Shown here in pieces: positions 28,954 through 48,191 of a stretch of 64,000 nt of DNA (position 1 is the stretch's first letter; each line of letters opens with the position of its first letter). The stretch is from assembly GCA_030522375.1 (NCBI GenBank), contig CP130488.1, forward strand, positions 442 to 64,441. Reading direction: 5' to 3'. The position numbers were made by a program, and so were the translations under genes. The notes under the pieces were generated by a model. It saw nothing but the letters and a program-made list of their open reading frames with translations, was not told the origin of the DNA and made no database searches. The DNA comes from Methanosuratincola petrocarbonis (GTDB lineage: Archaea; Thermoproteota; Methanomethylicia; Methanomethylicales; Methanomethylicaceae).

Positions 28954-28987
28954 TAATTCTATGAGTATACAGAATGGGGAAATTCTA

Positions 28988-30914: not shown

Positions 30915-30939
30915 AAAATAAAAGCATAATGATCGACCA

Positions 30940-32043
30940 ATGAAACGAATAGCAATCTTTGTGAACACCCCAGCACAGCTGCATTTCTATCGAAACATAG
31001 CCAAGAGGCTTGAGCAAAAAGGAAACCAAGTCAATATGCTGTTCAGGGATTACGGAGAGACTCTGCGATTAGCTCAAGAATTTGGTTTTAATCCACTAAT
31101 CTTCTCAAAACAGCGACCCACTTCGCTACAAAAAATGATTTTTTTCCCAGTCGACATTATGCGTTCGGTTAGGATTTTTCGCGGGCAAAATCCAGATGTC
31201 GTAACAGGATTCGGCATCGACAGCGTATATGCTTCCGCATTTGCTGGATCTAAAAGCATTGTCTTCAGTGATTCCGAGCCTAGATCGCATCGTCTACTGC
31301 ATTTTCAATACGATCTTTTCAAACCCTTAACGGATGTGATTATTACGCCTTCTTCATTCTTGGATGACCTGGGGAGCAAACATATCCGAGTGAACAGCTA
31401 TAAGGAACTCGCCTACTTGCACCCAAATTGCTTTCAACCAAGCAACGACATATTCGATCTCTTGGGCATTTCAAGAAACGAAGACTTCGCTATCCTTAGA
31501 TTCAATGCTTTCGATGCTGTGCACGATCTACAAATCTCAGGCTTCAATTCAGAGCAAAAAGTGAAGCTCGTTGAAACTCTTGACCGTCACGCCCATGTCT
31601 TCGTCTCTGCCGAAGGGAGCGTTCCAAAGCGAATCGAAAAGAACGTCCTCAAAATCCCCAAGAGAAGAATACATGACCTCCTATACTACGCCAAGCTTTT
31701 CGTTACCGATACGCAAACTATGGCTACAGAGGCAGCCATTCTTGGCACGCCCACAATCCGAAGCAACAATTTTGTAGACGAAAAAAGGGAAATGGGTAAC
31801 TTCCTTGAGCTAGAAAAAAAATACGGGCTTCTGTTTAGTATTTGCGATAGAAATAGAGCGATTTCCTTGGCAGAGGAATTGATAAAGTATGATGGTCTGA
31901 AAAAGGAATGGACAAGAAGGCGCGAGGTTTTATTGAAGGATAAAATTGACATTTCGTCGTTCATGACTTGGTTTATCGAAAACTATCCCGAAAGCTGCAA
32001 GGAAATCAAATCCGATTCGAAAATCCAGTTCAAATTCAGGTAA
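30940..32043 (+). CDS. DUF354-family protein, a predicted glycosyltransferase/epimerase-fold enzyme.
   Basis: The N-terminus MKRIAIFVNTPAQLHFYRNIAKRLEQKGNQVNMLFRDYGETLRLAQEFGF matches the DUF354 N-terminal pattern. The 367-aa length also fits. Confidence 0.55.
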   Translation: MKRIAIFVNTPAQLHFYRNIAKRLEQKGNQVNMLFRDYGETLRLAQEFGFNPLIFSKQRPTSLQKMIFFPVDIMRSVRIFRGQNPDVVTGFGIDSVYASAFAGSKSIVFSDSEPRSHRLLHFQYDLFKPLTDVIITPSSFLDDLGSKHIRVNSYKELAYLHPNCFQPSNDIFDLLGISRNEDFAILRFNAFDAVHDLQISGFNSEQKVKLVETLDRHAHVFVSAEGSVPKRIEKNVLKIPKRRIHDLLYYAKLFVTDTQTMATEAAILGTPTIRSNNFVDEKREMGNFLELEKKYGLLFSICDRNRAISLAEELIKYDGLKKEWTRRREVLLKDKIDISSFMTWFIENYPESCKEIKSDSKIQFKFR

Positions 32044-32044
32044 A

Positions 32045-33124
32045 ATGCGGGTTGCGACTGTGGTAGGGGCACGCCCTCAATTCATCAAGATGGCACCCTT
32101 GTCAAGGGAGCTCCGAAAATATTTCGAGGAGATCGTAATACACACAGGTCAGCACTACGATTACGAGATGGACCGCATATTCTTCGAACAGCTAAACATA
32201 CCTCCCCCAGATTACAACCTGGGCGTTGGGTCAGGCTTTCATGGCTACCAAACAGGTGAGATGCTCAAACGAATAGAGGATGTGTTGATAAAGGAAAGCC
32301 CAGATCTGGTCATTGTCTATGGCGACACCAACTCGACGCTGGCAGGTGCCCTTGCGGCCGCGAAGCTTCGAATAAGGGTAGCGCATGTAGAGGCTGGCTT
32401 GAGGTGTTTTGATAGAACGGTTCCTGAGGAAGTAAATAGGGTTCTTACAGATCATATTAGTGATTTGCTATTCGTTCCTACTGAGCGTGCCGTAAAAAAC
32501 CTCTACAACGAGGGAATAAAAAACGGTGTTTATCTGACAGGCGACGTCATGCTTGACGCTTTATTGCATAACATAACAATCGCTGAAAAAGAATCTAAAA
32601 TAATTCAAGAACTTGGCGTTGAGGCGAAATCTTATTTGCTTGTAACAGTTCATAGAGCAGAAAATACTGATAATAGAGCAAGACTTGAAAACATAATTGA
32701 ATGCTTGGTAAAGTGCAAAAGAAAAACAATCTTCCCGATCCATCCGAGGACTAAAGCATTTTTAGAAAAGTATAGCCTGCTTGATAAACTAAAAAACGCG
32801 GATCACATAATCTTGACGAAACCCCTAAGCTATTTTGACATGCTTGTTCTGGAAAAAAACGCAAGACAAATCATAACAGATTCAGGCGGCGTCCAAAAGG
32901 AGGCTTACTCTTTTAAAACGCCATGCATAACTCTTAGAAAAGTGACTGAGTGGCCAGAGACAGTTGAAGACGGGTTGAACATCTTAGTGGGTGATGATTA
33001 CGACCTCTTATTGGATATGATTTGGAAATTTGAGCCAGTCGGCGGGACTTACAGCTTCAGGTTTGGACATGGGGACGCAAGCTCAAGGGTTGTGCAAATT
33101 ATGAAAAATATTTTATGCGCTTGA
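32045..33124 (+). CDS. wecB: UDP-N-acetylglucosamine 2-epimerase, second copy and island paralog of 5450-6523.
   Basis: Motifs MRVATVVGARPQFIKMAPL...HTGQHYDYEMD...NLGVGSGFHG...TNSTLAGALAAAKL are present. SD AGGT lies upstream. Confidence 0.85.
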   Translation: MRVATVVGARPQFIKMAPLSRELRKYFEEIVIHTGQHYDYEMDRIFFEQLNIPPPDYNLGVGSGFHGYQTGEMLKRIEDVLIKESPDLVIVYGDTNSTLAGALAAAKLRIRVAHVEAGLRCFDRTVPEEVNRVLTDHISDLLFVPTERAVKNLYNEGIKNGVYLTGDVMLDALLHNITIAEKESKIIQELGVEAKSYLLVTVHRAENTDNRARLENIIECLVKCKRKTIFPIHPRTKAFLEKYSLLDKLKNADHIILTKPLSYFDMLVLEKNARQIITDSGGVQKEAYSFKTPCITLRKVTEWPETVEDGLNILVGDDYDLLLDMIWKFEPVGGTYSFRFGHGDASSRVVQIMKNILCA

Positions 33125-33305
33125 CTAAGCGTAATTTTATGCGCGCGCAATTGTATGCGATTTGCCAAGATGAAAAGGTTAAAGCTATTGAGTCTCAAAA
33201 TACTTCAGTACTCTATACTCTTTGTGTATAGATTGGTTTTCAAATAAAAATGTTTGATATAAAACTAAACTATGATTATAGTAATAAATAGTAAATAATT
33301 GGAAT

Positions 33306-34511
33306 ATGGGGTGTGTTTATAAAAGCAAAATTATTAAGAAATCTATTTATAATTTATATAATTATGTAAAAAAAGAAAATCATATTGGATTTGATCCTTA
33401 TGATGGCTTAAGCGGAAAAATGCAACGATATTATAATATAAAATATTTAAATATAATTTTATTACAATTTAATTTATATTCATTTGTAAATTTACGAAAA
33501 ATACTTGGCATAAAAAAGGGTTGTGCAAACAAGGCTTTAGCCATTTTTTCAAGATCCTACTTTTTACTATATCTAATTACAAAAGAAAAGGAATTTCTTG
33601 ATAATGCAATTAAATTGTTCGATATTTTAAAGGAAAGAAATCTTTTAAATAATAAAGATAATTATACGTGCTCAAGTCATTATTTTACATACCTTGCACC
33701 AGGCCATTATTTGACCACCTCTGTACCTGACATTATCTGTACCACGGAGTTTGTTAAATCTTCAGTTTTGGCATATGAAGTATTGGGAAAGTCTCAATAC
33801 CTTGAATATGCAGAAAAGGGAATTAATTACTTATTTTACAATTTATTGACTTCAAAAACTGGATATGGTTGTTACTTTAAGTACACTCCATATGAGGAAA
33901 CTAAAATTGTACTGAATGCGTCAGCTGTGGCGCTAGATGCTTTTTCTTATTTTTACAAGCATAGCCAAAATAAGAAATTTTTAGAGCTTGGGAAAAAAGT
34001 TGCAAGAACTCTTCTGCATTACCAGCGTGAAGATGGTGCATGGCCTTATTCTATTTACTTTAAAAATAATTTGCAATATTGGCAGGTCGACTTCCATCAA
34101 GGCTACATTATTGATGGGTTGATACATTTTTTTGATTGCGTGGCAGAATCAGATCTAACCTCAAAAATGAAGACAGCACTAGGAAAAGGAATTGATTTTT
34201 ACTGTCAAAAGCAATACCGAGGCAATGGGACTTTCTATTATAGGTATCCTATTAAGTACCCAATTGACATTCATAATCAAGCGCAAGGCATAATTACATT
34301 TGCCAATCTCTTTGACTTTACTGGAGATTATAAATACTTAGAACTCGCTGAAAGAGTTGCATTATATACTATTGAAAAAATGCAAGATGATGAAGGATAC
34401 TTCTACACGCACAAATATCCTTTATTTACGAATAAAATACCTTACATGCGTTGGGGACAGGCGTGGATGATGTTGGCTTTAACAAATCTTCTAATGGCAC
34501 TAAAAAAATGA
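33306..34511 (+). CDS. Hypothetical protein (401 aa) in the glycan island, possibly a glycan-modifying enzyme. It lies in the lowest-GC part of the island (~27 % GC).
   Basis: The ORF is long, uninterrupted and soluble. No motif could be assigned with confidence. Its context suggests a glycan-related function. Confidence 0.4.
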   Translation: MGCVYKSKIIKKSIYNLYNYVKKENHIGFDPYDGLSGKMQRYYNIKYLNIILLQFNLYSFVNLRKILGIKKGCANKALAIFSRSYFLLYLITKEKEFLDNAIKLFDILKERNLLNNKDNYTCSSHYFTYLAPGHYLTTSVPDIICTTEFVKSSVLAYEVLGKSQYLEYAEKGINYLFYNLLTSKTGYGCYFKYTPYEETKIVLNASAVALDAFSYFYKHSQNKKFLELGKKVARTLLHYQREDGAWPYSIYFKNNLQYWQVDFHQGYIIDGLIHFFDCVAESDLTSKMKTALGKGIDFYCQKQYRGNGTFYYRYPIKYPIDIHNQAQGIITFANLFDFTGDYKYLELAERVALYTIEKMQDDEGYFYTHKYPLFTNKIPYMRWGQAWMMLALTNLLMALKK

Positions 34512-35593
34512 AAGTCTTAATGATCGCACCAATTGGAAAAGCAGGTGGTGTTTCGACTCATTCTCAAGAATTGGTGAGAGAACTTCGGGGTTTAGGGATA
34601 ATGGTTGAAGTCTATAATGTAACGACTTCTATAAAACCAAGATTTATTGCTAATTTTATTAAATTTTATAAAAGAAGTTTCGGGGTCTTCATCAATATTT
34701 TCATTCGTAGGGGTTTTGATATAGTTCATGTACAAGCATCCGGTCCTATGGGTGGTTTCTTGCCTGCAATAAGTGCAGCAATTGTTAGAAAAATCGTAAA
34801 TTTTCCTTTAGTAGTGACTTTTCATTATTCTCGAACATCTGAATTTATTATAAAAAATAAATTTTTTAAATTTGTAATGGAATCATCAAAATTTTTTATT
34901 GTTGTATCTAAAAATCAGAAAAATATCATAATTAATGAAATAAATTATATAGAAAAAGTTAAAGTTATATCAAATGGTTTCAATCCAAAAAATCTTTTCC
35001 CAATTGACTGCATTTTTGCAAGGAAATATTTGAGTCTACCCTATAATAAAAAAGTAATTTTTCATGTTAGTAATCTTCTTCCTGTAAAAGGTCAAAAATA
35101 TTTAATTATAGGAATGAAGAAGATTTTAGAAAAACGCAAAGATGTGCTGCTTTTTATCGGTGGGAAAGGCCCATTAAAACACGAGCTTCAAAAACAAATT
35201 ATCGCACTGAAACTTGAAGATAACATTAAGCTTTTGGGTTTCATTCCAGATGATAAACTGGCACTATGGATGAATGCTGCCGATCTGTTTGTTTTACCTA
35301 GCCTGAGTGAGGGCAACCCCACAGTCATGTTCGAAAGCCTCGGTGTCGGCCTCCCCTTCGTGGGCACAAGGGTCGGCGGAGTGCCTGAGATAATAACCTC
35401 GGACGAATACGGCCTCCTGGCTGAGCCAGGCAACCCCGACGACCTGGCGGAGAAGATATTGGTCGCTCTTGAGAAGGAATGGGACCGTGAGAAGATTCGT
35501 GATTACGCCAGGCAGTTCACTTGGGAAAACATAGCCAAGCAGCTGATTAAAGTGTACGAGGAAGTCCTGAGCAAAAGTCCTTCTGGTGAGTAA
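34508..35593 (+). CDS. Family 4 (GT-B) glycosyltransferase. The last ~100 codons switch to host-like high GC.
   Basis: The ATG overlaps the previous stop (ATGA). A C-terminal EX7E-like region reads SLSEGNPTVMFESLGVGLPFVGTRVGGVPEII. A GC jump occurs near 35290. Confidence 0.75.
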   Translation: MKVLMIAPIGKAGGVSTHSQELVRELRGLGIMVEVYNVTTSIKPRFIANFIKFYKRSFGVFINIFIRRGFDIVHVQASGPMGGFLPAISAAIVRKIVNFPLVVTFHYSRTSEFIIKNKFFKFVMESSKFFIVVSKNQKNIIINEINYIEKVKVISNGFNPKNLFPIDCIFARKYLSLPYNKKVIFHVSNLLPVKGQKYLIIGMKKILEKRKDVLLFIGGKGPLKHELQKQIIALKLEDNIKLLGFIPDDKLALWMNAADLFVLPSLSEGNPTVMFESLGVGLPFVGTRVGGVPEIITSDEYGLLAEPGNPDDLAEKILVALEKEWDREKIRDYARQFTWENIAKQLIKVYEEVLSKSPSGE

Positions 35594-36290
35594 GATGCTC
35601 TTTATATCGAAAAAAGCAAAGGTGTCAGGGTCAATCGAGGGGGAAGCAGTGGTATTGGGCCCCTCCGAGGTGGGCGGTGGATCCGTGATAGGGAACAACG
35701 TGGTCATCGGCTATCCCATCCGTAGAAAGATCCTCCAGGTGCCCAATGCATCGTTTCTGGAGTACGACGCCGCAAGTTCTGGCGCAAAGGTAGGTCCCCG
35801 CTGCATAGTCAGATCCAACTCCACGATATACGAAGGCTCTTCGCTTGAGGAGGCGGTTGAGCTCGGGCACGGAGTCCTTGTGAGGGAAAAATGCGAGATC
35901 GGCGCAGGAGCTAGGATAGGGACTTTTGCTGTAGTCGACGGGAGCGTCTGCATTGGGAGCAGGTGCAGCATCCAGACTGGAGTCTACTTGCCGCCCGGTA
36001 CTGTGGTTGGCTCCGATGTGTTCATGGGTCCTTACGTGACCGTGACCAACGACCGATACCCTCCTTCGCCGAAGACCTCCGGAGTTGTGATCGAGAGCGG
36101 CGCCGTGATAGGGAGCCGTGCCGTCCTGATCGCCGGGATCCGTGTTGGCTCCGGAGCTGTTGTAGGGGCGGGCGCTGTGGTGACGAGGGATGTGCCCCCG
36201 GGCGACGTAGTTCTGGGCGTACCCGCGAGGAGGGTAATGGGAAGGGACGAATATGACAGGAAGCAAAAGGACTTCGTTTCCTTAAAGTAG
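35586..36290 (+). CDS. Left-handed beta-helix (hexapeptide-repeat) acyltransferase, a WbpD/PglD-like sugar N-acetyltransferase candidate.
   Basis: Repeated [LIV]G-x4 hexapeptides occur (VIGNNVVIG, RIGTFAVVDGSVCIGSRCSI, VIGSRAVLIAGIRVGSGAVVGAGAVV). The gene is high GC. Confidence 0.75.
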   Translation: MSKMLFISKKAKVSGSIEGEAVVLGPSEVGGGSVIGNNVVIGYPIRRKILQVPNASFLEYDAASSGAKVGPRCIVRSNSTIYEGSSLEEAVELGHGVLVREKCEIGAGARIGTFAVVDGSVCIGSRCSIQTGVYLPPGTVVGSDVFMGPYVTVTNDRYPPSPKTSGVVIESGAVIGSRAVLIAGIRVGSGAVVGAGAVVTRDVPPGDVVLGVPARRVMGRDEYDRKQKDFVSLK

Positions 36291-36305
36291 CAGGGTGGAA
36301 TTCGT

Positions 36306-37406
36306 ATGATACCGATAAACAAGCCGATTCTGGGGAAGGAAGAGATCGAGGCTGTCGCGAAGGTGATCGAGAGCGGCGCCCTCACCAACCCCGCCCCCGA
36401 GGGGGGGTCAGTCTGCAGGGCGTTCGAGCAGGAGCTTGCCTCTTACTGCAATGCGAAGCACGCTGTCGCATGCAACTCCGGTACCGCCGCGCTCCAGATG
36501 GCGCTTATGGCTGCTGGAGTCGGTCCAGGGGACGAGGTGATCGTCCCGTCCTTCACATTCGTGGCGACCGCAAGCTCCGTGCTCCTGGTTGGCGCCAGGC
36601 CGGTCTTTGTCGACATCGATCCGGATACATACAATATGGACCCAGAGCAATTCAGGAGGGCGATCACCCCGAGGACGAAGGCAGTGGTCCCCGTTGACCT
36701 GTACGGGCTGCCCGCTGCCATGGACGAGATAAAAGAGATCGCCCGCCAAAGTGGCATAATTGTCATAGAGGATGCCTGCCAGGCGCAAGGGGCTTCCTAC
36801 AAGGGCAAGATGGCGGGGACGCTTGGGGACATGGGGTGCTTCAGCTTCTACCCCGGGAAGGTAATGACTACGGGGGAGGGCGGGGCTGTGATCACGGACG
36901 ACGATGAGCTGGCAGAGCGCCTCCGCAGGATTAGGACCCACGGGCAGGTCAAGGGTTACGACTCCGTGATGCTCGGGGGAAACTTCAGGATGACCGAGAT
37001 GGCGGCTGCGATAGGCAGAGTCCAGCTAAAGCGCCTCCCGGGCTTCCTCTCTGTTAGGGAAAAGAACGCGGCGCAGCTTCTGGAGCTGCTTGATGGATCG
37101 AGCCTAAAACTGCCTGAGGTGCCTGGTAGATACAAGCACAACTGGTATTTGTTCACCGTAAAATGCAAAACAAATAAAGAAAGAGAATCCCTAAAATCCT
37201 CGCTGCTCGAGGCGGGTTTTGGAGTTGCCGTCTACTATCCAATTCCGTTGCACAAAATTCCTTTATTTAATGATTATTCGGATGATTTTATCAAAACTGC
37301 TGAACGCTGTTCTGAAGATGTTCTTTCGTTGCCAGTTAATCCTGCAGTTAGTTATGATGATATTATTAATATGGTTAATATAGTAAAATTTAAAGTAATA
37401 TTGTAA
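36306..37406 (+). CDS. DegT/DnrJ/EryC1/StrS-family PLP-dependent sugar aminotransferase (WbpE-like). The 3' ~250 nt revert to AT-rich composition.
   Basis: Family motifs are MIPINKPILGKEEIEAVAKVIESGAL and FSFYPGKVMTTGEGGAV. A PLP lysine context is present. SD GGGTGGA lies upstream. Confidence 0.8.
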   Translation: MIPINKPILGKEEIEAVAKVIESGALTNPAPEGGSVCRAFEQELASYCNAKHAVACNSGTAALQMALMAAGVGPGDEVIVPSFTFVATASSVLLVGARPVFVDIDPDTYNMDPEQFRRAITPRTKAVVPVDLYGLPAAMDEIKEIARQSGIIVIEDACQAQGASYKGKMAGTLGDMGCFSFYPGKVMTTGEGGAVITDDDELAERLRRIRTHGQVKGYDSVMLGGNFRMTEMAAAIGRVQLKRLPGFLSVREKNAAQLLELLDGSSLKLPEVPGRYKHNWYLFTVKCKTNKERESLKSSLLEAGFGVAVYYPIPLHKIPLFNDYSDDFIKTAERCSEDVLSLPVNPAVSYDDIINMVNIVKFKVIL

Positions 37407-37428
37407 TAAAAATTTTTAATTAATAAAT

Positions 37429-39163
37429 ATGAAAAATAGAATTTTATACTTATACATATTAATTAGTTGTACATTTATATTCTTCATTTATGAATCAACT
37501 TTTTTACCACAAAAGTTACCCACTCATGTCTTCTATTTAATTGCCATAATACTTTCATTATCTATTGTTTTATTTGCATTCTTTTCAAAAAATATAATTG
37601 GTTATGTGCTTACAATTTCTTTTATTTCTTTTTTAATAAAAGAAGCATTTTTATCTGTGGTCCCTCCATCAATTATTTCTTTATATTTAGATAATTATGT
37701 TATCTACCAAGTTGCAAATGGTATCGCTACTTATTCTCGTATCCCTCCTATAGATTATTACTCTAATGCTGCAATTTTTGTTGCAAAGCAACCTGTGGCC
37801 CCCGTATTCTCTGTTATTTTTTCAGGGATAACTGGCGTTCCATTAGAATTAAGTCTAAGACATTTAGGCTGCGTTATTGGAGGATTGATTATTCCTATTG
37901 TGATTTGTCTCCTTTATAACCCGCTGGAAAAACAATTTGGTTATCAGTCTTTCAAATTTAGTCACTTGTCTCTATTATTTTCTCCTTGGATAGTTTTCTT
38001 TTTGATATGGGGTCACTATTCAATTTATAGTATCACATATTTTGCAATTATGAGTTTTATAATATTAAGGTATCTCATTATAGAAAGAAGAATTGGTGTA
38101 GGATGCATAATTTTATGGTCAATAACCTCCATTGCGATTTCATTTGCGCATGTTTATTTATCTGTTATTGCATTAGCAATTTTTGGGTTGACGCTGTTTT
38201 GCTTTATTATATTATTGTATGGTGCGAATTACACGAGAAGATTTTTTAACCTTTTATGTATTTATTCGATCAACCTAATCATATATGTTTTGTTTTTTTT
38301 TTGAGGAAACTATAACTTCAATACTGTTTAGTTTAGCATTACTTTTTGAAGCAATAGTTATCGGAGACCCGTCTCGGGGAATCAACTTCTACTTTGCGGG
38401 TGGAGGAATTGAGGTGCCGTTTTATGTTAGGTTTTTGAGATGGGCTGGGGCAATTTCTTGGGCTTTATTGACAGCATTTTCTTTTATTTTGCTCTTAAGA
38501 AAATACCGAAATTCGAGAAAATTTTTAGCATACATAATGTATCTTAGTGTAGGCACGATAGGGTTTATTACTGCTCTACCCTATATTTTGGATCCAAAAT
38601 ATGGAACAGATCTGTTTAATCGATCTCTTTATTTCTTTGGTCTAATGTGTGCAGCCCCGTTTGTAGGTTTTATTTCCAAACATTTTTCAGGAAAATTGAA
38701 GAAAGTAATATATTTCATATTTTTAACTCTGATTATAAATTTTGGAATCACAATGACTCCTGTTGATTTCCAAAGCTGGAATTATCCCATAAGAGGTGGA
38801 GAAGACATTCGTCTTTATCCATCTGAGTGGGCGGCAGCAGGCACATTTACATTAAATTATGCTGATAGCTTGAGTTCGGCCTGCGGTCTTAGGCAAGGTT
38901 TGTCAACAATTGGTTATTTTAGTAGGATAAATTACTATGAAATACAACCGTCTGCCTCAAATCAACTTGTTTTTATTCCACCAGATGAATGGGATGAACT
39001 AAAAAATTATTGGACGGATTGTTGCTTTTTAAGAAAAAGTATTACAAAATACGAGGAAGTGCCGGGATATGTGGTTCAAAATTCTACATTTGATGAGCTG
39101 ATTAGTTCTGTCAAAATTGTTTATACTTGCACTGATGTGTTTATGATTTATTATAGAAATTAA
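37429..39163 (+). CDS. Polytopic membrane protein with ~9-11 TM segments and a C-terminal soluble domain, GT-C-like glycosyltransferase or polymerase candidate. It is split into ORFs 37429-38304 and 38285-39163 by a +1 frameshift in a T10 run (38293-38302).
   Basis: Removing one T fuses the frames to give ...YVLFFFEETITSILFSL.... Both halves are very AT-rich and hydrophobic. A GT-C-like architecture is inferred from the TM domain plus periplasmic-type C-terminal domain. Confidence 0.5.
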
Positions 39164-39164
39164 T

Positions 39165-40277
39165 ATGAAGATTCTTATTATTGGTAATAACATTTCTAAG
39201 CCTTACTTGGGTCCTTCAGCAGTTTTAAACAACACATTAAAAGGTTTTTATAAAATAGATAAAAAACTTGAAAAATATGGTATAAAACTAACTTTTATGT
39301 CAATAAATGAAAATGTTGACAAACTGCTTAGTGAAAATATTAAAATAGTGGGCGTGAAGAGATATCGCTATCCTTTTGTTACTGTCACATATGAAATTCA
39401 GTCTTTATTGTTTTCTCCAAAAGAAAAATTTAATGCCGTTCACTCGCATATATTGTATGAGATTTTTCCTTGGATAATTAAGTTTCCAACATTTTTTACA
39501 CTTCATGGAATTTTTTGGAAAGAAAAGAAATATATGAATAATAAATTTTTATCCGAATATTCAAATTTAGTAAACACTCTAAGACTTACTTTTTACTCTA
39601 GTCATATTGCTGCACTTGTAGCAGTTTCTCCATATGTTATTGAAGAGCTCGAAGCGATGGGATTTGATATCAAAAAGGCGGTAGTGATAGAAAATCCTGT
39701 TTCGGACGAGTTCTTCGAAATAGAGAAAGAACAAGACGATATGATCCTATATCCTGCAGCCCTAAATGCAAGAAAGAACCAACTTGGCTTCCTTAAGGCT
39801 TTCGCTTCAGTTAAGAATGAGCTTAAAGGGTACAAGTTAGTTTTTACAGGCTCCGGGGATTCCGGTTATTATGCAACGCTCAGGCATTTCGCGGAAAAGC
39901 ATGGCTTGAATGCAGCGTTCCTCGGTAAAGTCCCCTATAAAGAAATGGTGCGCCTTTACTCCAGAGCTTCCTTCGTGGCCTTAACTTCATTCCAGGAGAC
40001 GCTCCCAATGGCGGTTCTTGAATCCCTGGCATCCGGCACTCCCGTTCTCGCCTCGCGGGTCGGAGGCTTGCCCTACGTCATCGAAGATAACATTAACGGT
40101 CTTCTAGTGAATCCGTTCAACCATCTAGAAATAGCGGAGAAAATTATCGCTTTGACAGACAAGAGTCTTCGCGAAAAATTGGCTGCAAATGCTAAAAGAA
40201 CTGCCGAAAAATACAGAAGTGATGTGGTCGCAAAAAAGCTTCTTGAATTGTATCTAACTAGAGTAAATATGTATTAA
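39165..40277 (+). CDS. Family 4 glycosyltransferase. Its C-terminal 213 aa are identical to the next gene.
   Basis: The GT-B C-terminal domain reads ...FTGSGDSGYYATLRHFAEKHGLNAAFLGKVPY...ETLPMAVLESLASGTPVLASRVGGLPYVIEDNINGLLV. The N-terminal domain is diverged from that of 40280-41377. Confidence 0.75.
   Translation: MKILIIGNNISKPYLGPSAVLNNTLKGFYKIDKKLEKYGIKLTFMSINENVDKLLSENIKIVGVKRYRYPFVTVTYEIQSLLFSPKEKFNAVHSHILYEIFPWIIKFPTFFTLHGIFWKEKKYMNNKFLSEYSNLVNTLRLTFYSSHIAALVAVSPYVIEELEAMGFDIKKAVVIENPVSDEFFEIEKEQDDMILYPAALNARKNQLGFLKAFASVKNELKGYKLVFTGSGDSGYYATLRHFAEKHGLNAAFLGKVPYKEMVRLYSRASFVALTSFQETLPMAVLESLASGTPVLASRVGGLPYVIEDNINGLLVNPFNHLEIAEKIIALTDKSLREKLAANAKRTAEKYRSDVVAKKLLELYLTRVNMY
39615..40253 (+). 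repeat. Copy 1 of a perfect ~639-bp direct repeat (copy 2 at 40724-41362).
   Basis: Nucleotide-for-nucleotide identity was checked by eye across the whole segment. The antisense track ORFs 39602-39835 and 40705-40944 are near-identical over the shared segment. Confidence 0.9.
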
Positions 40278-40279
40278 AT

Positions 40280-41377
40280 ATGACGATTCTTATAATAGGG
40301 TCAAAAATTTCTAACCCTTATCTTGGTCCTTCAACAGTCCTTAGCAATACTTTGAAGGGATTTTTAAAAATCCAGAAAGAACTTGAGAAATATGGTGTTA
40401 AAATAACTTTTCTATCACTTAATGACAATATTAATAAAAAATTTTCAAAATATATCCGAGTAATCAGCTATAGAACTTACCCTCCAATTACCTTTACAGG
40501 GGAACTCCAAGCAGTGGTTAACAAATCTAAAGAGACGTTCGATATAGTACACGCTCACGGGATTTACGACCTTTTTCCATACATCTTTTCTAATACGCCA
40601 ACCATTTTTACCCTTCATGGAATCTTTTGGAAAGAGATCTTTTTCAAAAGCAAACTGTACTCAAAACTATACCTAAAGCTTGGGGAGTTGCGACTGAGGT
40701 TTTATTACCCAAAGATTACAAGGTTTGTAGCAGTTTCTCCATATGTTATTGAAGAGCTCGAAGCGATGGGATTTGATATCAAAAAGGCGGTAGTGATAGA
40801 AAATCCTGTTTCGGACGAGTTCTTCGAAATAGAGAAAGAACAAGACGATATGATCCTATATCCTGCAGCCCTAAATGCAAGAAAGAACCAACTTGGCTTC
40901 CTTAAGGCTTTCGCTTCAGTTAAGAATGAGCTTAAAGGGTACAAGTTAGTTTTTACAGGCTCCGGGGATTCCGGTTATTATGCAACGCTCAGGCATTTCG
41001 CGGAAAAGCATGGCTTGAATGCAGCGTTCCTCGGTAAAGTCCCCTATAAAGAAATGGTGCGCCTTTACTCCAGAGCTTCCTTCGTGGCCTTAACTTCATT
41101 CCAGGAGACGCTCCCAATGGCGGTTCTTGAATCCCTGGCATCCGGCACTCCCGTTCTCGCCTCGCGGGTCGGAGGCTTGCCCTACGTCATCGAAGATAAC
41201 ATTAACGGTCTTCTAGTGAATCCGTTCAACCATCTAGAAATAGCGGAGAAAATTATCGCTTTGACAGACAAGAGTCTTCGCGAAAAATTGGCTGCAAATG
41301 CTAAAAGAACTGCCGAAAAATACAGAAGTGATGTGGTCGCAAAAAAGCTTCTTGAATTGTATCTTTCCTGCGGTTGA
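40280..41377 (+). CDS. Family 4 glycosyltransferase, tandem paralog with an identical C-terminal half.
   Basis: The same C-terminal GT-B domain is present. The N-terminus MTILIIGSKISNPYLGPSTVLSNTLKGF is ~65-70 % identical to MKILIIGNNISKPYLGPSAVLNNTLKGF. Confidence 0.75.
   Translation: MTILIIGSKISNPYLGPSTVLSNTLKGFLKIQKELEKYGVKITFLSLNDNINKKFSKYIRVISYRTYPPITFTGELQAVVNKSKETFDIVHAHGIYDLFPYIFSNTPTIFTLHGIFWKEIFFKSKLYSKLYLKLGELRLRFYYPKITRFVAVSPYVIEELEAMGFDIKKAVVIENPVSDEFFEIEKEQDDMILYPAALNARKNQLGFLKAFASVKNELKGYKLVFTGSGDSGYYATLRHFAEKHGLNAAFLGKVPYKEMVRLYSRASFVALTSFQETLPMAVLESLASGTPVLASRVGGLPYVIEDNINGLLVNPFNHLEIAEKIIALTDKSLREKLAANAKRTAEKYRSDVVAKKLLELYLSCG
40724..41362 (+). repeat. Copy 2 of the perfect ~639-bp direct repeat.
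   Basis: Identical to 39615-40253; the offset is 1109 bp. Confidence 0.9.
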
Positions 41378-41893
41378 ATTTAGCCACTTCCGTTCCACTA
41401 GTCTATTTTCCTTTAAGTTAAAAATCCGAATTACATCAATATAGAATGCCTAGTTTTGGTGTGATTTGACATTTAATGTGACATAACATCTTCCTTGGAG
41501 AAAAGTTTTCAGCCGCAAAGACTAAGAAATCGTTCCCCCTCCTTTGAATCTGGAATTCCTTTTTATGTAAAGCTTGGATGAACCACTCAGTTTAGGCATT
41601 GGCTTTACTTGGGTATTAGATGCGCCCCCTTCGTCTAGCGAACTATTTTTCGGGATCGAAAGAACAGCTAGGAAAATCAATCAAAACGAAAGATAAGGTG
41701 CCAATGTATGAAATCATCTGCAGTTCGTGGATGCGGTGTTGAGAACTTGGCAACTATCTCGAAACGCACATTTCCACTCGGAACGAAATCAGGGGCATGG
41801 ACGGATCAAATCACATCTGTAGGATCGAATTTACTTTAGAGGCATCGGTTATAAAGCCCGGCCCACAAAACCTTCTGCAATCAGGTGCCCGCG

Positions 41894-42646
41894 AATGAAA
41901 CGCCTGGACCGGAGGGAGAGGAACCGCCTGAAGGGCGAGCGCTTCGAGGAGCTCGTCGAGCTTCTCTTCAGGTCGATGGGTACGCCACGAAGATGAAGAC
42001 CGGCGACAACTTCGTCCAGACAAAGGACTTCGACAAGTTGCAGATCGACATCATCGCCGAGAAGCCAGGCGACAGGGTGCTGGTCGAGTGCAAGAACTAC
42101 TCCCTTTACCCGATCTCGCAGAAGGAAATCCACTACTTCTACTCCGCCCTGGAGGCCGCCGGCAGCGGCTAGAGGGGCGTCTACGTCACGTGGAACGCCT
42201 ATGAGGATCCAGTAAAGAGGAACGCGCATGGCAAGCCGATCGATCTCTGGTACATGTCGACGCTGATGGAGCACGCGAAGCGCAACCCGGAGTTCTTCAA
42301 GGACCTTTTGTCACTCTCCGCCGACGGGCTGGTCGAGCGGTACCGCAACGACCATGCCTTCATCGACACGGTCCTGACACTCGCCGCTGGCAGGGACCCC
42401 CGCTTCGAGGCGCTGAGCCAGACCGAGGAGGAGCTGCCCGCCCCCGAGAACTTCAGCAAGGAGGGCTGGAGGAAGGCGGTCGAATTCGAGGCGTATTGCA
42501 GGGGCCTCTTCAGCAGGAAGTACTTCGAGATAGTGATGTACACGAAGGACCTCCAGGGCGAGGGTGCGGAGAGCGTGGACCGCCTCTACTACCCGGACTA
42601 CGTAATCGAGTATAAGCCGACCAGGGAGAGGTTCAGCGTCGAGTGA
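41894..42646 (+). pseudogene. Decayed Mrr-like (PD-(D/E)xK) restriction endonuclease-domain gene. It has a -1 frameshift near 41975 and an in-frame TAG at 42170-42172.
   Basis: Frame 1 reads MKRLDRRERNRLKGERFEELVELLFRSMG..., an Mrr_cat N-terminus. After the shift the sequence reads YATKMKTGDNFVQTKDFDKLQIDIIAEKPGDRVLVECKNYS, a PD-DxK core. After the TAG stop the same frame continues RGVYVTWNAYEDPV... into ORF 42254-42646. Confidence 0.55.
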
Positions 42647-42661
42647 AAATACCGATCGAAC

Positions 42662-42913
42662 ATGCCAGAAGACGATTCGTCCATCGAATGGACCAGCCAG
42701 AGGCGACTCGAGCAGTACCTGGAGTTCTCAGAGAAGGAGGATTTCCCGCTCTTCGTCGTGATCGGGGTCGGCGGGACGCCCTCTTCCCCGGAGCGGATGT
42801 TCTGCCTGCCCCTCGACGAGGCGGACTCGCCGACAATCGACGCCTGCGTCTACCTCAACAGGGAGCGCGACCCTGCAAAGATGTTCTATTGGAAAGACGG
42901 GTGCCTTGAGTGA
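42662..42913 (+). CDS. Hypothetical small protein, possibly a remnant of the same decayed locus.
   Basis: The ORF is 83 aa and its composition resembles the neighbouring degraded gene. No motif was recognised. Confidence 0.2.
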   Translation: MPEDDSSIEWTSQRRLEQYLEFSEKEDFPLFVVIGVGGTPSSPERMFCLPLDEADSPTIDACVYLNRERDPAKMFYWKDGCLE

Positions 42914-43125
42914 GGACGCCTCGAGGAGAGCAGTTACTGCTGGACTCTTGTGCCTAACAACGGTCTATGCCTGACCAAAAAAGGCTCATAAATCCATGTA
43001 ATACAAACCTCCCAAAGAATCAGCCAACTTCAGTGCTCAATCCTCCCTTGCATTTTCAATACCGCGCAAGGCGCCAACTTTCATATATACTCTAAACCAC
43101 TACTTTGATCCGAGGAGTGCCCCAA

Positions 43126-44184
43126 ATGAAAGCCCTCGTCCTCTCTGGCGGCAAAGGCACGCGCCTCCGCCCCCTGACCTTCACGATAGCGAAGCAGCTC
43201 ATCCCGGTGGCGAACCGCCCAATCCTCGGCTACGTCCTCGACCAGGTGGTCCAGGCGGGGATAAGGGAAGCCGGCATAATCATCGCCCCCGAGACCGGGC
43301 AGTACGTGAAGGAATACGTGAAGGATGGCTCCGAGTGGGGTCTCTCCGTGGAGTACATCCCCCAGGAGCCACTCGGCCTCGCCCACGCGGTGAAGACCGC
43401 CCAGCCGTTCCTCGGAGATTCGGACTTCGTGATGTGCCTCGGGGACAACCTGCAGGGGAAGGGCATCGCTGGGCTCGTCAGGCGCTTCCGCGACGAAAAA
43501 CTGGACTGCCTCATCCTCCTCAAGGAGGTCGCAGAGCCGCAGCGCTTCGGGATCGCAGCCCTATCACCGGACGGGCGCGTCATCAGGGTCGTCGAGAAGC
43601 CCAAGGACCCGCCGAGCAACCTCGCAGTAGTCGGCACCTATGTCTTCTCCCCCAGGGTCCACGAAGCCATAACGCGGATAAAGCCCTCCTGGCGCGGCGA
43701 GCTCGAGATCACGGACGCGATCCAGGCGATGATCGACATGGGTCTCCGGGTCGGCGCAGAGGTCCTTGACTCCTGGTGGCTCGACACGGGCAAGAAGGAC
43801 GACATCCTCACCGCGAACTCGATCGTCCTCGACGAGTACCTGGAGCGCCGGGTCGAGGGCGAAGTCATCGACAGCGTTGTGGAAGGCAGGGTGCGCATAG
43901 CGCCTGGCGCCAAGGTCATCGGCAGCAGGGTCAGGGGCCCGTCGGTGATAGGAAAGGGGGCGGTCGTGGAGCGGTCCTGCGTCGGTCCCTACTCGAGCAT
44001 CGGCGACGGGGCGAGGGTGGCGGACTCCTGCGTCGAGAATGTGGTTCTGATGGAGTGCTCCTCGGTCGAGGGCGTGGAGCGCCTGGAGGACAGCCTCGTC
44101 GGGAAGCACTCGAGGATCAGGAAGAACTGCCGGGGGAGGTCCGTGAAGGTCACGGTGGGGGACTACTCAGAGGTTGATGTTTAA
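43126..44184 (+). CDS. rmlA: Glucose-1-phosphate thymidylyltransferase, long archaeal form with a C-terminal hexapeptide-repeat domain.
   Basis: The N-terminus MKALVLSGGKGTRLRPLTFTIAKQLIPVANRPIL is a sugar nucleotidyltransferase motif. The C-terminus has LbH repeats. SD GGAGTG lies upstream. Downstream are rmlD, rmlC and rmlB. Confidence 0.85.
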   Translation: MKALVLSGGKGTRLRPLTFTIAKQLIPVANRPILGYVLDQVVQAGIREAGIIIAPETGQYVKEYVKDGSEWGLSVEYIPQEPLGLAHAVKTAQPFLGDSDFVMCLGDNLQGKGIAGLVRRFRDEKLDCLILLKEVAEPQRFGIAALSPDGRVIRVVEKPKDPPSNLAVVGTYVFSPRVHEAITRIKPSWRGELEITDAIQAMIDMGLRVGAEVLDSWWLDTGKKDDILTANSIVLDEYLERRVEGEVIDSVVEGRVRIAPGAKVIGSRVRGPSVIGKGAVVERSCVGPYSSIGDGARVADSCVENVVLMECSSVEGVERLEDSLVGKHSRIRKNCRGRSVKVTVGDYSEVDV

Positions 44185-44213
44185 TAATTTACTGTTGGCG
44201 GGCTGGTTCTCTG

Positions 44214-45152
44214 ATGAGGTTTCTGATCTCTGGCGCGGGCGGTCTGCTGGGCTCAAAGCTCGCCGAGGTCGCGATCGCCGCAGGTCATGTTGTCTTCGCC
44301 GGGTACTCCAGCGCCCCGCCTCCCTGCGGCACCCCGGTCCGCCTGGACCTGACCGACCCAGATTCAATCAAGAGCGCCCTGCGCGCATCCGCCCCCGACG
44401 TGGTCTTCCACTGCGCGGCTCTTACGGATGTGGACAGGTGCGAAGCTGAGAGGGAGCTCGCCCTGAGGATCAATGCGGAGGGGACCGAGCGGTTCGCGAA
44501 ATCCGCCTCCGAATTCGCCCCGCTCTTCGTCTACGTCTCCACCGATTACGTTTTCGACGGATCCCGCGGGATGTACTCCGAGTCTGACCAGGTCAGCCCT
44601 GTCAACTTCTACGGGTACACGAAGCTGCTGGGGGAGAGGCACGCCCTCTCCTGCTCGAAAAAAGCCCTGGTGGCGCGCACGAGCGTGATTTACGGCGCCT
44701 GCCCCTCGAGGGGGAAAGTGAACTTCGCCCTCTGGATAACCGAATCCCTCCTCCAATCGAGACCCGTCGCCCTGCTCACCGATCAGTGGGTCTCTCCGAC
44801 CCTGAACTCCAGCCTCGCCAGGATGCTCCTCGAAGCCGCTGAGCGCGGTCTGACTGGGGTCTATCACCTGGCAGGAGCCTCGCGCGTCTCCAGGTACGAA
44901 TTCGGCCTCTCCTTGGCCAGGGCGTTTGGCTTCAAGTTGGGACTAGGGGGGATCAACGGGGGAGGGGACTCGGCGCTTAAGCCGGCACTCATGTCTGACT
45001 TTGTCGGCAAGTGGGTCGCGAGGCGCCCCAGGGACTCTTCGCTGGACGTTTCGAAGGCTTCATCCACCCTCGACGAGAAGCCGCTCCCCTTGGGGCTGTC
45101 AATTGAAGAGTTTAAAAAGGAATACTTGCAGATAAAGCGTGGTGTTCCCTGA
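44214..45152 (+). CDS. rmlD: dTDP-4-dehydrorhamnose reductase.
   Basis: The N-terminus MRFLISGAGGLLGSKL is a Rossmann motif and YGYTK carries the catalytic Tyr/Lys. The gene is in the operon position. Confidence 0.75.
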   Translation: MRFLISGAGGLLGSKLAEVAIAAGHVVFAGYSSAPPPCGTPVRLDLTDPDSIKSALRASAPDVVFHCAALTDVDRCEAERELALRINAEGTERFAKSASEFAPLFVYVSTDYVFDGSRGMYSESDQVSPVNFYGYTKLLGERHALSCSKKALVARTSVIYGACPSRGKVNFALWITESLLQSRPVALLTDQWVSPTLNSSLARMLLEAAERGLTGVYHLAGASRVSRYEFGLSLARAFGFKLGLGGINGGGDSALKPALMSDFVGKWVARRPRDSSLDVSKASSTLDEKPLPLGLSIEEFKKEYLQIKRGVP

Positions 45153-45656
45153 ATGCTTCCTGGCATCGTTGTGAAGCCCCTCAGCCGGCATGTGGACGAG
45201 CGGGGAAACTTTACAGAGATCTTCCGATCGGACATGAAGGATATCTTGGGAGACGACACAATCGTCCAGTCGAACCTCTCCTATTCCTACCCGGGCGTGA
45301 AGAGGGCCTGGCACAGGCACGAGCGGGGTCAGGTCGACTACTTCGTCTGCATAGGTGGGGCAATAAAGATCTGCGCTTACGACGACGCGACCGCCGAGCT
45401 CGACGAGATCGTCTCCTCCGCAGCTTCCCTCCAGGTCGTGAGGATCCCGGGTCATTACTGGCACGGCTTCAAGGTGGTGGGGAGCGAGCCAGCCACGCTG
45501 GTCTACTTCACGACCAGGCTCTACGACTACAAGTCGCCTGACGAGCTGAGGCGCCCTTGGGATGACCCGACCGTTGTCCCGAAGTCGATAAACGGGAAGG
45601 TCAACGACCCCCGCGTCGGGAAGCCCTGGGACTGGGACTTCGTTCTGTACAAGTGA
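45153..45656 (+). CDS. rmlC: dTDP-4-dehydrorhamnose 3,5-epimerase (cupin).
   Basis: The protein is 167 aa. It carries the motif DERGNFTEIFR, a His-containing active-site region (WHRHE) and RIPGHYWHGF. Confidence 0.8.
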   Translation: MLPGIVVKPLSRHVDERGNFTEIFRSDMKDILGDDTIVQSNLSYSYPGVKRAWHRHERGQVDYFVCIGGAIKICAYDDATAELDEIVSSAASLQVVRIPGHYWHGFKVVGSEPATLVYFTTRLYDYKSPDELRRPWDDPTVVPKSINGKVNDPRVGKPWDWDFVLYK

Positions 45657-45670
45657 CGGGCGTGAGTCGC

Positions 45671-46672
45671 ATGCGGCTGCTGGTCACCGGGGGTCTTGGA
45701 TTCATAGGCAGCAACTTCATAAGGCTCTGCCTCCGGATCCCGGAGTGCGAAGTCATAAACCTCGACAACCTCTCATACGGGTCGAATGAGTCCAACCTGA
45801 GGGAGCTCGCCGGCGATCCCCGCTACACATTCGTGAGGGGAGACATCTGCGACCCAAACTCGATCCGCCGGGCTTTGGTCATGGGCGTTGAAGCGGTGGT
45901 CAACTTCGCCGCCGAGACCCATGTGGACAGGAGCATCTCCGACCCCCTTAGGTTCTACAGGACGAACGTGGGCGGGGTTCTGAACATCCTTGAGTGCATA
46001 AGGGAGTGCGGTCGCGACATCCGCTTTCTACAGGTAGGGACTGACGAGAGCTACGGCGACATCCTCGAAGGCTCCTTCTCAGAGGGCGATCGCCTGTCCC
46101 CATCCTCGCCATACTCTGCCTCGAAGGCTTCCGCGGACCTCTTTGTCCTCGCGTACCGACGCACCTATGGTTTGGATGCCCTGGTGACGAGGTGCACGAA
46201 CAACTTCGGCCCGTTCCAGTTCCCGGAGAAGCTTGTCCCCAAGACGATCATACGTGCGCTCAATGGGCTCAAGATACCTATTTACGGCTCCGGGAGGAAC
46301 GTGAGGGACTGGATCTTCGTCGAGGACCACTGCGAGGCGGTCATGGTTGCACTTTTGCGCGGGAAGCCCGGGGAGATCTATAATGTCTCTGCAGGGAACG
46401 AACTCGACAACCTCTCCCTGGTCAAGAAGATCCTCTGCATCCTTGGTCGTGGCGAATCGCTGATAGAGCATGTTGAGGACAGGCCCGGCCACGACCTACG
46501 TTACAGCCTTGACTCATCAAAGGCTAGAAGGGATCTGGGGTGGCATCCGCGCCACGGCTTCGATGAAGCCCTCAAAAAGACTGTGGAGTGGTATGTGAAT
46601 AACGAGTGGTGGTGGCGCCCGCTCGCTGACGAGAGGATGCTCAGCCCTGCGCCTTGGAAATTGAAATGGTGA
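45671..46672 (+). CDS. rmlB: dTDP-glucose 4,6-dehydratase.
   Basis: Motifs MRLLVTGGLGFIGSNFIR and YSASKASAD (YxxxK) are present. The TDE catalytic triad is represented by VGTDESYG. Confidence 0.85.
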   Translation: MRLLVTGGLGFIGSNFIRLCLRIPECEVINLDNLSYGSNESNLRELAGDPRYTFVRGDICDPNSIRRALVMGVEAVVNFAAETHVDRSISDPLRFYRTNVGGVLNILECIRECGRDIRFLQVGTDESYGDILEGSFSEGDRLSPSSPYSASKASADLFVLAYRRTYGLDALVTRCTNNFGPFQFPEKLVPKTIIRALNGLKIPIYGSGRNVRDWIFVEDHCEAVMVALLRGKPGEIYNVSAGNELDNLSLVKKILCILGRGESLIEHVEDRPGHDLRYSLDSSKARRDLGWHPRHGFDEALKKTVEWYVNNEWWWRPLADERMLSPAPWKLKW

Positions 46673-47092
46673 TTGCGAGTTACAAATGACTTTCTACAAT
46701 TGATGGTATGCTATCTTAAAGACGAGCGTTCTCGCAATTTTCATACCGATTGAAAAGCGCCGTTTGGTGCCTGTTGCGTCGCGTGCCGCTGCGAGTGCTC
46801 TTGGTTCGAGTTCGCTGTGCAATATTGAGATTTCTGGTCAAGAAATTTCTCCGAGTATCAGTCCTAGTCAACATATCCGACAAAGGCAAGGCGTCCCGCT
46901 TACTCGGCACTATCGAGCAACAAGCTGGGGAGATGGGGCATAGAGATGCCCCACTAGATGCCTCACTGGAGGGACGCCCTCCGCCGCTACCTGGAAGAGA
47001 AAGGGCACTTGAAGCCTCTTTCTGTCGCTTGATCCCTTCCGAAAGCCTCGGGCACCGTTCGTTTTTTAAGAGGGTCGCCCTCTACATTTTTT

Positions 47093-48130
47093 ATGGCGCA
47101 GCCCAAAGTCTCTGTACTGTGGGTCAACTACAACGGCATGCACATTCGGGACATCCTGCTGGAGTCCTTGCAAGCCATAGACAGTTTGAATTACGAAAAC
47201 TATGAGCTCATCGCAATCGACAACGGGTCCAATGACGGAAGCTACGTGCTTATACGCGACCAGTTCAAAAGGATGCGCTGCGAAAGGCGGTTGATCAGGC
47301 TCGACAGGAACCTAGGTTTCACGGGAGGGAACAATGTTGCCTACAGGGCACGATCGCCCGAAACAAAGTACGTCCTGCTCGTGAACAACGACGCCGTGGC
47401 TTACCCGGACAGCCTTCGCGAGATCGTAGAGAGGATGGACTTAGACAGCACGGTCGGAGCAGCCCAGGGCATCACGGTGGACTACTCCACAGGCGCCGTC
47501 GACACGGCGGGCGAGATGGTGGATGAGGTCTTGGAGGTCCATTCTCTTTTCAACGGCTGTCCGCCAGGATCCGTCAAGTCAGCTATCGAGATCACTTATA
47601 CCAATGGCGCCTTCGCAGTCTACCGCGTGTCGTCTGTACATGCGGCGCAGGGCGACCGACTATTCGACAATATCTTTGCATACTACGATGACAACCTCCT
47701 GGGGTTGAAACTATGGAACTGCGGCTTCAAGTCGGTCTCCTTCCCAGTCTTAGCCGCCAGGCACAGGAAGAGCTCCTCTTTCAGGAGATACAGCGAGGCA
47801 ATGATTTATTTGACGATAAGGAATTGCCTCTTTCTCAATGAGATAGCCAACAGCAGGTACCGCAAATTGAACCGGCTCTTCCCGCTGAAAATCATGCTGA
47901 AGCATATTGGTGGCAACCCTTCTGAGACTTTTTCCCTCTCTTTCAAGGCAGCAAGGGACGGCTTTTTAATGGGCAAGAAAACATTATCGGAGGAAGGCAT
48001 GGTGGACCTATACAAGGCGCCAATCGTGAGCCTTGAGCCCCCTCTGGCACTTTTGCGCCTCCTTCTTCCAGGAAGGTTCACAAGAGGGATCCTGGAAAGG
48101 AGAATAAAAGAAACAATCAATAGCTCATAA
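47093..48130 (+). CDS. Family 2 glycosyltransferase.
   Basis: The N-terminus VSVLWVNYNGMHIRDILLESL...LIAIDNGSNDGS matches the GT2 N-terminal fold, with a DxD-like YYDDN. Confidence 0.7.
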   Translation: MAQPKVSVLWVNYNGMHIRDILLESLQAIDSLNYENYELIAIDNGSNDGSYVLIRDQFKRMRCERRLIRLDRNLGFTGGNNVAYRARSPETKYVLLVNNDAVAYPDSLREIVERMDLDSTVGAAQGITVDYSTGAVDTAGEMVDEVLEVHSLFNGCPPGSVKSAIEITYTNGAFAVYRVSSVHAAQGDRLFDNIFAYYDDNLLGLKLWNCGFKSVSFPVLAARHRKSSSFRRYSEAMIYLTIRNCLFLNEIANSRYRKLNRLFPLKIMLKHIGGNPSETFSLSFKAARDGFLMGKKTLSEEGMVDLYKAPIVSLEPPLALLRLLLPGRFTRGILERRIKETINSS

Positions 48131-48191
48131 ATAACATGAATCCAAATTGTTTCAACCAAACTTAAAATATAAGTTTTACTAATTCTCTGCC

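Follow-up and report, generated by a model that had tools for sequence, protein, structure and literature searches.

Two adjacent archaeal glycosyltransferase genes share an exact 640-bp block that is probably maintained by recurrent, domain-restricted gene conversion

We analyzed a 64,000-nucleotide (nt) stretch of Methanosuratincola petrocarbonis DNA (contig CP130488.1, positions 442 to 64,441 of the forward strand; hereafter, the window). Two adjacent genes in the window, here called GT-A and GT-B, encode glycosyltransferases of family 4 (GT4) and lie at the end of an island of glycan biosynthesis genes. Both are intact open reading frames (ORFs), and only 2 nt separate the GT-A stop codon from the GT-B start. 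The two genes differ in their 5' parts and carry the same 3' block, as follows (window coordinates; GC, G+C content; GC3, G+C content at third codon positions; aa, amino acids).

39165 to 40277, forward strand: GT-A, GT4 glycosyltransferase of 370 aa, intact ORF
39165 to 39615, forward strand: N_A, the diverged N-terminal (acceptor-side) part of GT-A; GC 27 %, GC3 21 %
39616 to 40255, forward strand: copy 1 of the putatively converted block, GT-A residues 151 to 364; exact match to copy 2
40256 to 40279, forward strand: unique GT-A tail (TRVNMY and stop), followed by the 2 nt that precede the GT-B ATG; this junction proves that the genes lie in tandem
40280 to 41377, forward strand: GT-B, GT4 glycosyltransferase of 365 aa, intact ORF
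40280 to 40724, forward strand: N_B, the diverged N-terminal part of GT-B; GC 34 %, GC3 35 %
40725 to 41364, forward strand: copy 2 of the putatively converted block, GT-B residues 149 to 362; exact match to copy 1

We found that 39616-40255 and 40725-41364 form a direct repeat of 640 bp with 0 mismatches and an offset of 1109. The original prediction had described these identical segments with coordinates that were off by 1 to 2 nt and a length of 639 bp. Similarity is gone immediately beyond both ends of the repeat. On the 3' side the tails are unrelated (TRVNMY and stop in GT-A, SCG and stop in GT-B). On the 5' side, N_A and N_B are 61 % identical in nucleotides when gaps are counted and 66 % when gaps are excluded. 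This is near the 65 to 70 % that had been proposed for the N-terminal domains, a figure that understates their divergence: amino acid identity is 51 %, and synonymous sites are saturated (proportion of synonymous differences [pS], 0.72), with a ratio of nonsynonymous to synonymous divergence (dN/dS) of about 0.16. Synonymous divergence (dS) is 0 inside the block, versus a pS of 0.72 over the adjoining 450 nt. A 640-bp exact match cannot arise by chance on a background of ~60 % identity. Every family-invariant residue is retained in both GT-A and GT-B.

The base composition also changes at the block. The contrast first claimed (~45 versus ~30 %) is present, with a GC of 45 % in the block, 27 % in N_A, and 34 % in N_B, but the step is only partly diagnostic of conversion. 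Single-copy relatives of the pair (P0005 and P0004) and the third GT4 gene of the island are also GC richer in their 3' halves, so part of the step is intrinsic to the family; in the third GT4 gene, GC3 rises from 0.22 in the 5' half to 0.42 in the 3' half. We also considered GC-biased gene conversion as the source of the block's GC. It is unsupported, because the five polarizable changes comprise two from AT to GC, two from GC to AT, and one neutral change, and because the relatives with 3' GC enrichment are unduplicated.

Both proteins match the two GT4 domain models. For PF00534 (Glycos_transf_1; gathering cutoff, 26.4 bits), GT-A scores 114.8 bits and GT-B 118.6 bits; for PF13439 (Glyco_transf_4; cutoff, 28.5 bits), the scores are 36.1 and 55.4 bits. 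An AlphaFold2 model of GT-A (predicted local distance difference test score, 91; predicted template modeling [TM] score, 0.90) has the GT-B fold, with two Rossmann-like domains and a C-terminal helix that crosses back. Its best Foldseek matches in the PDB are retaining GT4 enzymes, namely MshA (3c4q), PglH (6eji), BshA (6n1x), and PglA (8dvz), with TM scores of 0.76 to 0.80. An E-x7-E motif is typical of the GT4 family, and here it is E278-TLPMAVL-E286 in the C-terminal domain (C-domain), invariant in 23 of 23 aligned family members. The block starts in the strand formed by residues 150 to 153 of the N-terminal domain (N-domain), takes in that domain's last beta-alpha-beta unit and the linker, and continues through all of the C-domain and along the C-terminal helix as far as residue 364. 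The original prediction equated the block with the whole C-terminal Rossmann domain. The block does contain that domain, but it also reaches back across the linker into the final beta-alpha-beta unit of the N-domain and forward over most of the C-terminal helix.

GT-A and GT-B are similar to the named families Agl16 and PglH but are not members of either, since their scores are far under the equivalog cutoffs: 91.8 and 88.0 bits against 575 for Agl16 (NF041010) and 84.7 and 86.3 bits against 600 for PglH (NF050056). In enzymes with the GT-B fold, the nucleotide sugar is bound by the C-domain and most of the acceptor by the N-domain. By analogy with this division of labor, GT-A and GT-B likely use one nucleotide-sugar donor and two different acceptors. 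The putative acceptors could be successive steps of one lipid-linked glycan, or they could be alternatives.

Close homologues belong to "Ca. Methanosuratincola." Look-ups of exact protein sequences (GT-A, GT-B, and DegT of the window, and P0242 and P0244) returned no record. In a scan of species-representative genomes, the sole match was "Ca. Methanosuratincola verstraetei" LCB70, an independent complete genome from another continent (CP186953.1; loci L003 and L005). Two scans of Joint Genome Institute metagenomes, one searching by protein patterns and the other by a 35-nt probe taken from the block, gave no match. LCB70 has the same gene pair with an exact 640-bp block (10410-11049 = 11519-12158) whose boundaries are the same as those in the window. 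The sequence of the junction between the GT-A tail and the GT-B start (window 40256 to 40279) is also the same. Because the junctions are nucleotide identical in the two genomes, the array arose once.

Over the 2,236 colinear nt, the window and LCB70 differ at 22 positions, with 4 differences in N_A, 2 in N_B, and 16 in the blocks. The 16 block differences are 8 sites, each altered identically in both copies; 6 are nonsynonymous and 2 are synonymous. Thus, the two block copies differ at 0 sites within the window and at 0 sites within LCB70, while the blocks of the two genomes differ at 8. After a single origin of the array, the same eight differences in both copies require gene conversion. We polarized these changes with the haplotypes of single-copy versions of the locus (L001 and L004, described below) and assigned at least four derived changes to the window lineage and at least one to that of LCB70. 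This places at least one conversion in each lineage after the split, in addition to the first homogenizing event, so that at least two separate events are needed. The two genomes diverge by 1.25 % in the block, much as they do (by about 1 %) over the 5 kb around it, which argues that the block mutates normally and is then homogenized. Since all eight between-genome differences are present in both copies of each genome, conversion appears to be recurrent (concerted evolution) rather than a single event. The domain-level conversion proposed in the original prediction is thus supported by the LCB70 pair and by the sites changed in both copies; its picture of one very recent event is not.

Three other assemblies have a single gene at this locus: Logan contigs L001 (22.7 kb) and L002 (38 kb) and European Nucleotide Archive contig L004. 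In L001 and L002 the gene consists of N_A, the block, and the B tail; the junction between the GT-A tail and the GT-B start is absent, and the contigs run unbroken through the block. This gene would be the exact product expected of a crossover within the repeat. The L001/L002 block haplotype is a mosaic of the window and LCB70 haplotypes, and the island gene content differs. In L004, one gene stands directly after the gene for a membrane protein that also precedes the pair in the window. It is A type at every diagnostic site to about nt 110 (39 codons) and B type from there on, and the switch is single and clean, at the shared AAATATGGT. We considered whether L004 could be a k-mer chimera and rejected this by reasoning, as A and B have no common word long enough around the switch. 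Assemblers that build contigs from k-mers break at unresolved repeats and do not skip a loop. Partly on the strength of this general behavior, the single genes are best read as real deletion hybrids formed by recombination between the copies.

The 5' parts of the two genes have different affinities. In trees of the first 150 residues, N_A groups with P0005 (57 % identity; its nearest relative) and P0009 (48 %), and N_B groups with P0004 and P0007, the relatives nearest to it (70 and 66 %). N_A and N_B thus come from different subclades and diverged anciently; either an old duplication or the acquisition of one gene would account for their presence side by side. The relatives carry one GT4 gene behind the same membrane-protein gene, and this marks the tandem pair as lineage specific. 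In more distant metagenome-assembled genomes of Thermoproteota (L007 to L009), a membrane protein of 513 to 583 aa is likewise followed by a single GT4 of this family. The block itself shares 64 % identity with P0004, a B-type relative, and 58 % with P0005, an A-type relative; family members are 46 to 64 % identical in the C-domain. The trees of the two domains and the identities lean weakly to B as the donor of the block.

Purifying selection on an extremely constrained domain might in principle keep two copies alike with no recombination, and no other part of the family is as conserved as the C-domain. This explanation is refuted by the synonymous sites, which are also 100 % identical within each genome. 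The block also tolerates six nonsynonymous and two synonymous differences between genomes, and the C-domains of the family differ as widely as noted above. We give selection alone practically no chance of being the explanation. The original prediction offered an assembly collapse or a duplicated contig end as its own alternative, and a broader form of that idea is that one gene, or two merely similar copies, was made identical by repeat collapse, gap filling, or consensus polishing. The repeat exceeds short-read length, related samples assembled from short reads have one gene only, and a nearby homopolymer (T10 here, T9 in four other loci) causes a frameshift that may be a sequencing error. 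However, both copies are internal to the window, with intact and distinct 5' halves, distinct 3' tails, a unique junction between the A tail and the B start, and the invariant residues kept. The same structure recurs in the independent LCB70 genome with a different block haplotype, and polishing of unlike copies should give per-site mixtures, not two clean genome-specific haplotypes. The single-gene contigs, for their part, differ from both tandem genomes elsewhere and in island gene content, and no graph break falls in the block. We therefore consider an artifact very improbable.

A very recent tandem duplication of the whole gene could also have produced the pair if a foreign allele then replaced one 5' half; no ongoing conversion would be needed. 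The island is in fact mosaic in composition and recombines with foreign DNA (from gene to gene, GC3 varies between 0.21 and 0.66, and between species the island shares 99.2 % identity), N_A and N_B fall in different subclades, and N_A shares a very low GC3 with the membrane-protein gene upstream. But the array has a single origin, and eight block sites have nonetheless changed in both copies; copies without later conversion should differ. Recent duplication may account for the beginning of the array, not for its present state, and as a full explanation we judge it improbable. A real and recurrent gene conversion between GT-A and GT-B, restricted to one domain, is instead probable, in our assessment.

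Several points weigh against this conclusion or narrow it. The tandem form is present in two genomes only, and what we say of how many conversions took place, and in which direction, is therefore a minimum estimate; the C-domain tree does not decide which copy was the donor. Polishing with multimapping short reads could slightly overstate the perfect identity within each assembly. Six of the eight between-genome block changes are nonsynonymous, which fits weak constraint rather than selection for identity; selection for identity is thus not indicated. In enzymes with the GT-B fold, the N-domain also touches the donor sugar, so an identical C-domain is not proof of identical donor specificity.

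According to the model that we propose, two anciently diverged members of the GT4 family came to adjoin at the end of a surface-glycan island. Homologous recombination, in the form of nonreciprocal gene conversion, would repeatedly overwrite the 3' 640 bp of one copy with those of the other. Residues ~151 to 364 would then evolve as one sequence, while the first 150 residues would remain distinct under purifying selection. The tract ends where nucleotide similarity collapses. Its limits are also those of conservation across the family, on the 5' side the start of the FVA(I/V)SPYV segment and on the 3' side the end of LELYL, and this coincidence fits a tract limited by the available homology. 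The same repeat would serve as a crossover substrate, with deletion of the intervening DNA leaving a single hybrid gene. We also looked for signs of a mobile cassette or a site-specific system in the island and rejected this candidate, as the island has no tRNA genes, Rfam hits, flanking inverted repeats, or recombinase.

The array could be a recombination-based device for varying the glycan and not a passive by-product of homology, although we think this unlikely. According to this idea, the identical block would be kept because both enzymes must dock to one partner, for example, the upstream membrane protein, and crossover together with reacquisition of the island would switch the population among three glycan types: A plus B, A front only, and B front only. 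If this were true, prokaryotes would have a counterpart of the "variable acceptor exon plus constant donor exon" logic of UGT1. If the model of one donor and different acceptors is true, loss of a front half would alter the glycan.

A functional analogy is with the Campylobacter pgl system, whose PglA, PglJ, and PglH are, with Sulfolobus Agl16, the closest NCBIfam and PDB similarities to GT-A and GT-B. PglA, PglJ, and PglH are retaining GT4 enzymes of the GT-B fold whose substrates are lipid-linked oligosaccharides, and several of the paralogues share one donor, UDP-GalNAc, for acceptors that follow one another. This scheme is the functional model that we would propose for GT-A and GT-B. To our knowledge, the Pgl paralogues do not share identical C-domains. 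Neisseria lgt genes are another likeness, in that adjacent paralogous genes encode glycosyltransferases for surface glycans. Variants of lgt reportedly arise by recombination between the paralogues. The locus has tandem paralogous genes for lipooligosaccharide glycosyltransferases (lgtA/lgtD and lgtB/lgtE) whose number varies among strains, with strain 15253 having only lgtA and lgtE (PMC2192810). Strains with fewer genes would, as here, have a changed glycan. The lgt genes differ from our pair in being bacterial, in belonging to other glycosyltransferase families, and in varying also by poly(G) phase variation, and we know of no evidence there of a sharply domain-limited block kept identical.

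A close likeness in process is mtrA-1/mtrA-2 of the Methanococcales and Methanomicrobiales, adjacent paralogues in the same operon with long-lasting gene conversion in one domain (PMC4632066). There, as here, the hosts are archaeal methanogens, one domain is recurrently homogenized while the other stays distinct, and the diagnosis is that paralogues within a genome are closer than orthologues between genomes. In contrast, the two mtrA paralogues belong to the core methanogenesis genes, while GT-A and GT-B are glycosyltransferase genes in a laterally mobile, strain-variable island. The time depth here is shallow (about 1 % divergence, two genomes), compared to hundreds of millions of years for mtrA; the copies here are exactly identical, and the repeat here is in addition a source of deletion hybrids in the population. 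For prokaryotes in general, a survey of concerted evolution has been published (PMC6053082). At the vertebrate UGT1 locus, variable first exons are joined to shared constant exons (PMC1885805), so that each of many N-terminal domains, which bind the acceptor, is paired with the same C-terminal domain, which binds the donor. This is an analogy only, as UGT1 splices alternatively onto a single constant region, whereas here two physical copies are kept identical, probably by conversion.

The kind of process is therefore already known; what is new here is the lineage, the unusually clear boundaries, and the population variants. The pair would be a clean natural case of conversion confined to one domain of a two-domain enzyme, with the before and after states (tandem, A-type hybrid, and B-type hybrid) visible in the population. 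GT-A, GT-B, and the natural hybrids already amount to a domain-swap series with which the half of a GT-B-fold enzyme that sets acceptor choice could be sought. Methanosuratincola species are methyl-reducing methanogens of the Thermoproteota that have only just been cultured, and we know of nothing reported about their cell-surface glycans. The locus also carries a warning for annotation and assembly, since short-read assemblies may show one gene for two, or the reverse.

Two larger features precede or contain the pair.

37429 to 39163, forward strand: conserved multipass membrane-protein gene upstream of the pair; 577 aa in relatives, split into two ORFs here
about 27973 to 41377, forward strand: low-GC mosaic glycan biosynthesis island ending with the tandem pair, delimited by GC profile and gene families

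The two membrane-protein ORFs in the window, 37429-38304 and 38285-39163, are split by the T10 run mentioned above (38284-38293). The extra T reflects either an error in sequencing the homopolymer or a genuine frameshift, possibly a phase-variable one. The pairing of this membrane protein with the GT4 family is conserved in L001, L003, L004, and L007 to L009, and the membrane-protein gene is always immediately 5' of the GT4 gene (for example, at 8224-9957 in L003 and 6248-7999 in L008). The protein has at least 10 predicted membrane-spanning segments and a soluble C-terminal part of ~130 aa. It had no match in Pfam or NCBIfam, even at an E value of 5. As a guess only, its role may be that of a polymerase or of a GT-C-like partner.

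The island sits in a backbone of ~60 % GC (window GC, 54.8 %). Its gene families are a GFO_IDH_MocA oxidoreductase, a nucleoside diphosphate (NDP)-sugar dehydrogenase, an AglJ-like family 2 glycosyltransferase (GT2), DUF354, a WecB 2-epimerase, a C5-epimerase-like protein, the third GT4, a hexapeptide acetyltransferase, a DegT aminotransferase, and the multipass membrane protein. For the WbpA/B/E/D/I-type pathway to UDP-2,3-diacetamido-uronic acid, a candidate source of the donor sugar, all five enzyme classes are represented (6-dehydrogenase, 3-oxidoreductase, aminotransferase, N-acetyltransferase, and 2-epimerase). Cutoffs were passed only by WecB (367 versus 210 bits) and by the generic NDP-sugar dehydrogenase model; with the archaeal UDP-GlcNAc 3-dehydrogenase model, the score was 176 bits against a cutoff of 450. 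From its gene content, and with most equivalog cutoffs not reached, the island looks like a pathway for a di-N-acetylated hexuronic acid that feeds a lipid-linked surface glycan. The AglJ-like GT2 of window 30150-30914 is missing from L001 and L002 (1-6431), and the third GT4 is called at 238 aa in L001/L002, versus 380 aa here, which suggests that several glycosyltransferase steps differ among strains.

We compared the island with that of LCB70. Window positions 29207-42405 are 99.2 % identical to LCB70 (L003 1-13200; L003 begins at window 29207), whereas the next syntenic backbone segments (window 57991-60435) are only 80 to 83 % identical. L001 is 97.7 % identical to LCB70 in the DNA flanking the pair downstream and 97.5 % in the island, where the window is closer to LCB70. 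The high identity of the island relative to the backbone, together with the greater distance of the LCB70-like L001 within the island, argues for recent lateral transfer of the island between species. M. petrocarbonis LWZ-6, whose genome measures 1.54 Mb and contains 54.42 % G+C, has an average nucleotide identity of 87.6 % to LCB70 (PMC12244365). An island 99 % identical between two species that are otherwise about 87 % identical points to a recent lateral exchange of genes for surface glycans; the lineages involved would be one from a Yellowstone hot spring and, probably, one from a Chinese oil field.

Divergence between the window and LCB70 is uneven along the island. It is ~0.1 % over 29.2 to 36.7 kb, except for 10 differences clustered at 33207-33706. 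The 3' end of the DegT gene (36707-37206) holds 27 differences in 500 bp, and rightward of it the sequences diverge by about 1 %, a pattern that suggests a recombination breakpoint within the island. Composition is uneven as well: two high-GC genes at 35586-37406, for the hexapeptide acetyltransferase and the DegT aminotransferase (GC3, about 0.65), stand amid island genes with a GC3 of 0.21 to 0.48, and we counted at least four compositional layers.

Downstream of the pair, ~15.6 kb of the window (42405-57991) is missing at this position from LCB70 and L001. The segment contains rmlA-, rmlD-, and rmlB-like genes, a GT2 gene, unknown ORFs, and the gene for a giant surface protein; in its place LCB70 has a MazE-like gene and an AAA_14/DUF4143 ATPase gene. 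It appears to be a strain-variable cell surface region. The giant protein (51742-56877; 1,711 aa) has a beta-helix (NosD) domain and many Ig-like domains and is a candidate surface or surface-layer (S-layer) protein. Within its gene lies an exact tandem duplication of 261 bp; apart from the 640-bp block, no other long exact repeat occurs in the window. In its repeats (52173-52694 and 53772-55388), nonadjacent modules are 98 to 99 % identical among copies that are otherwise 60 to 76 % alike, a second sign of repeat homogenization in surface-related genes.

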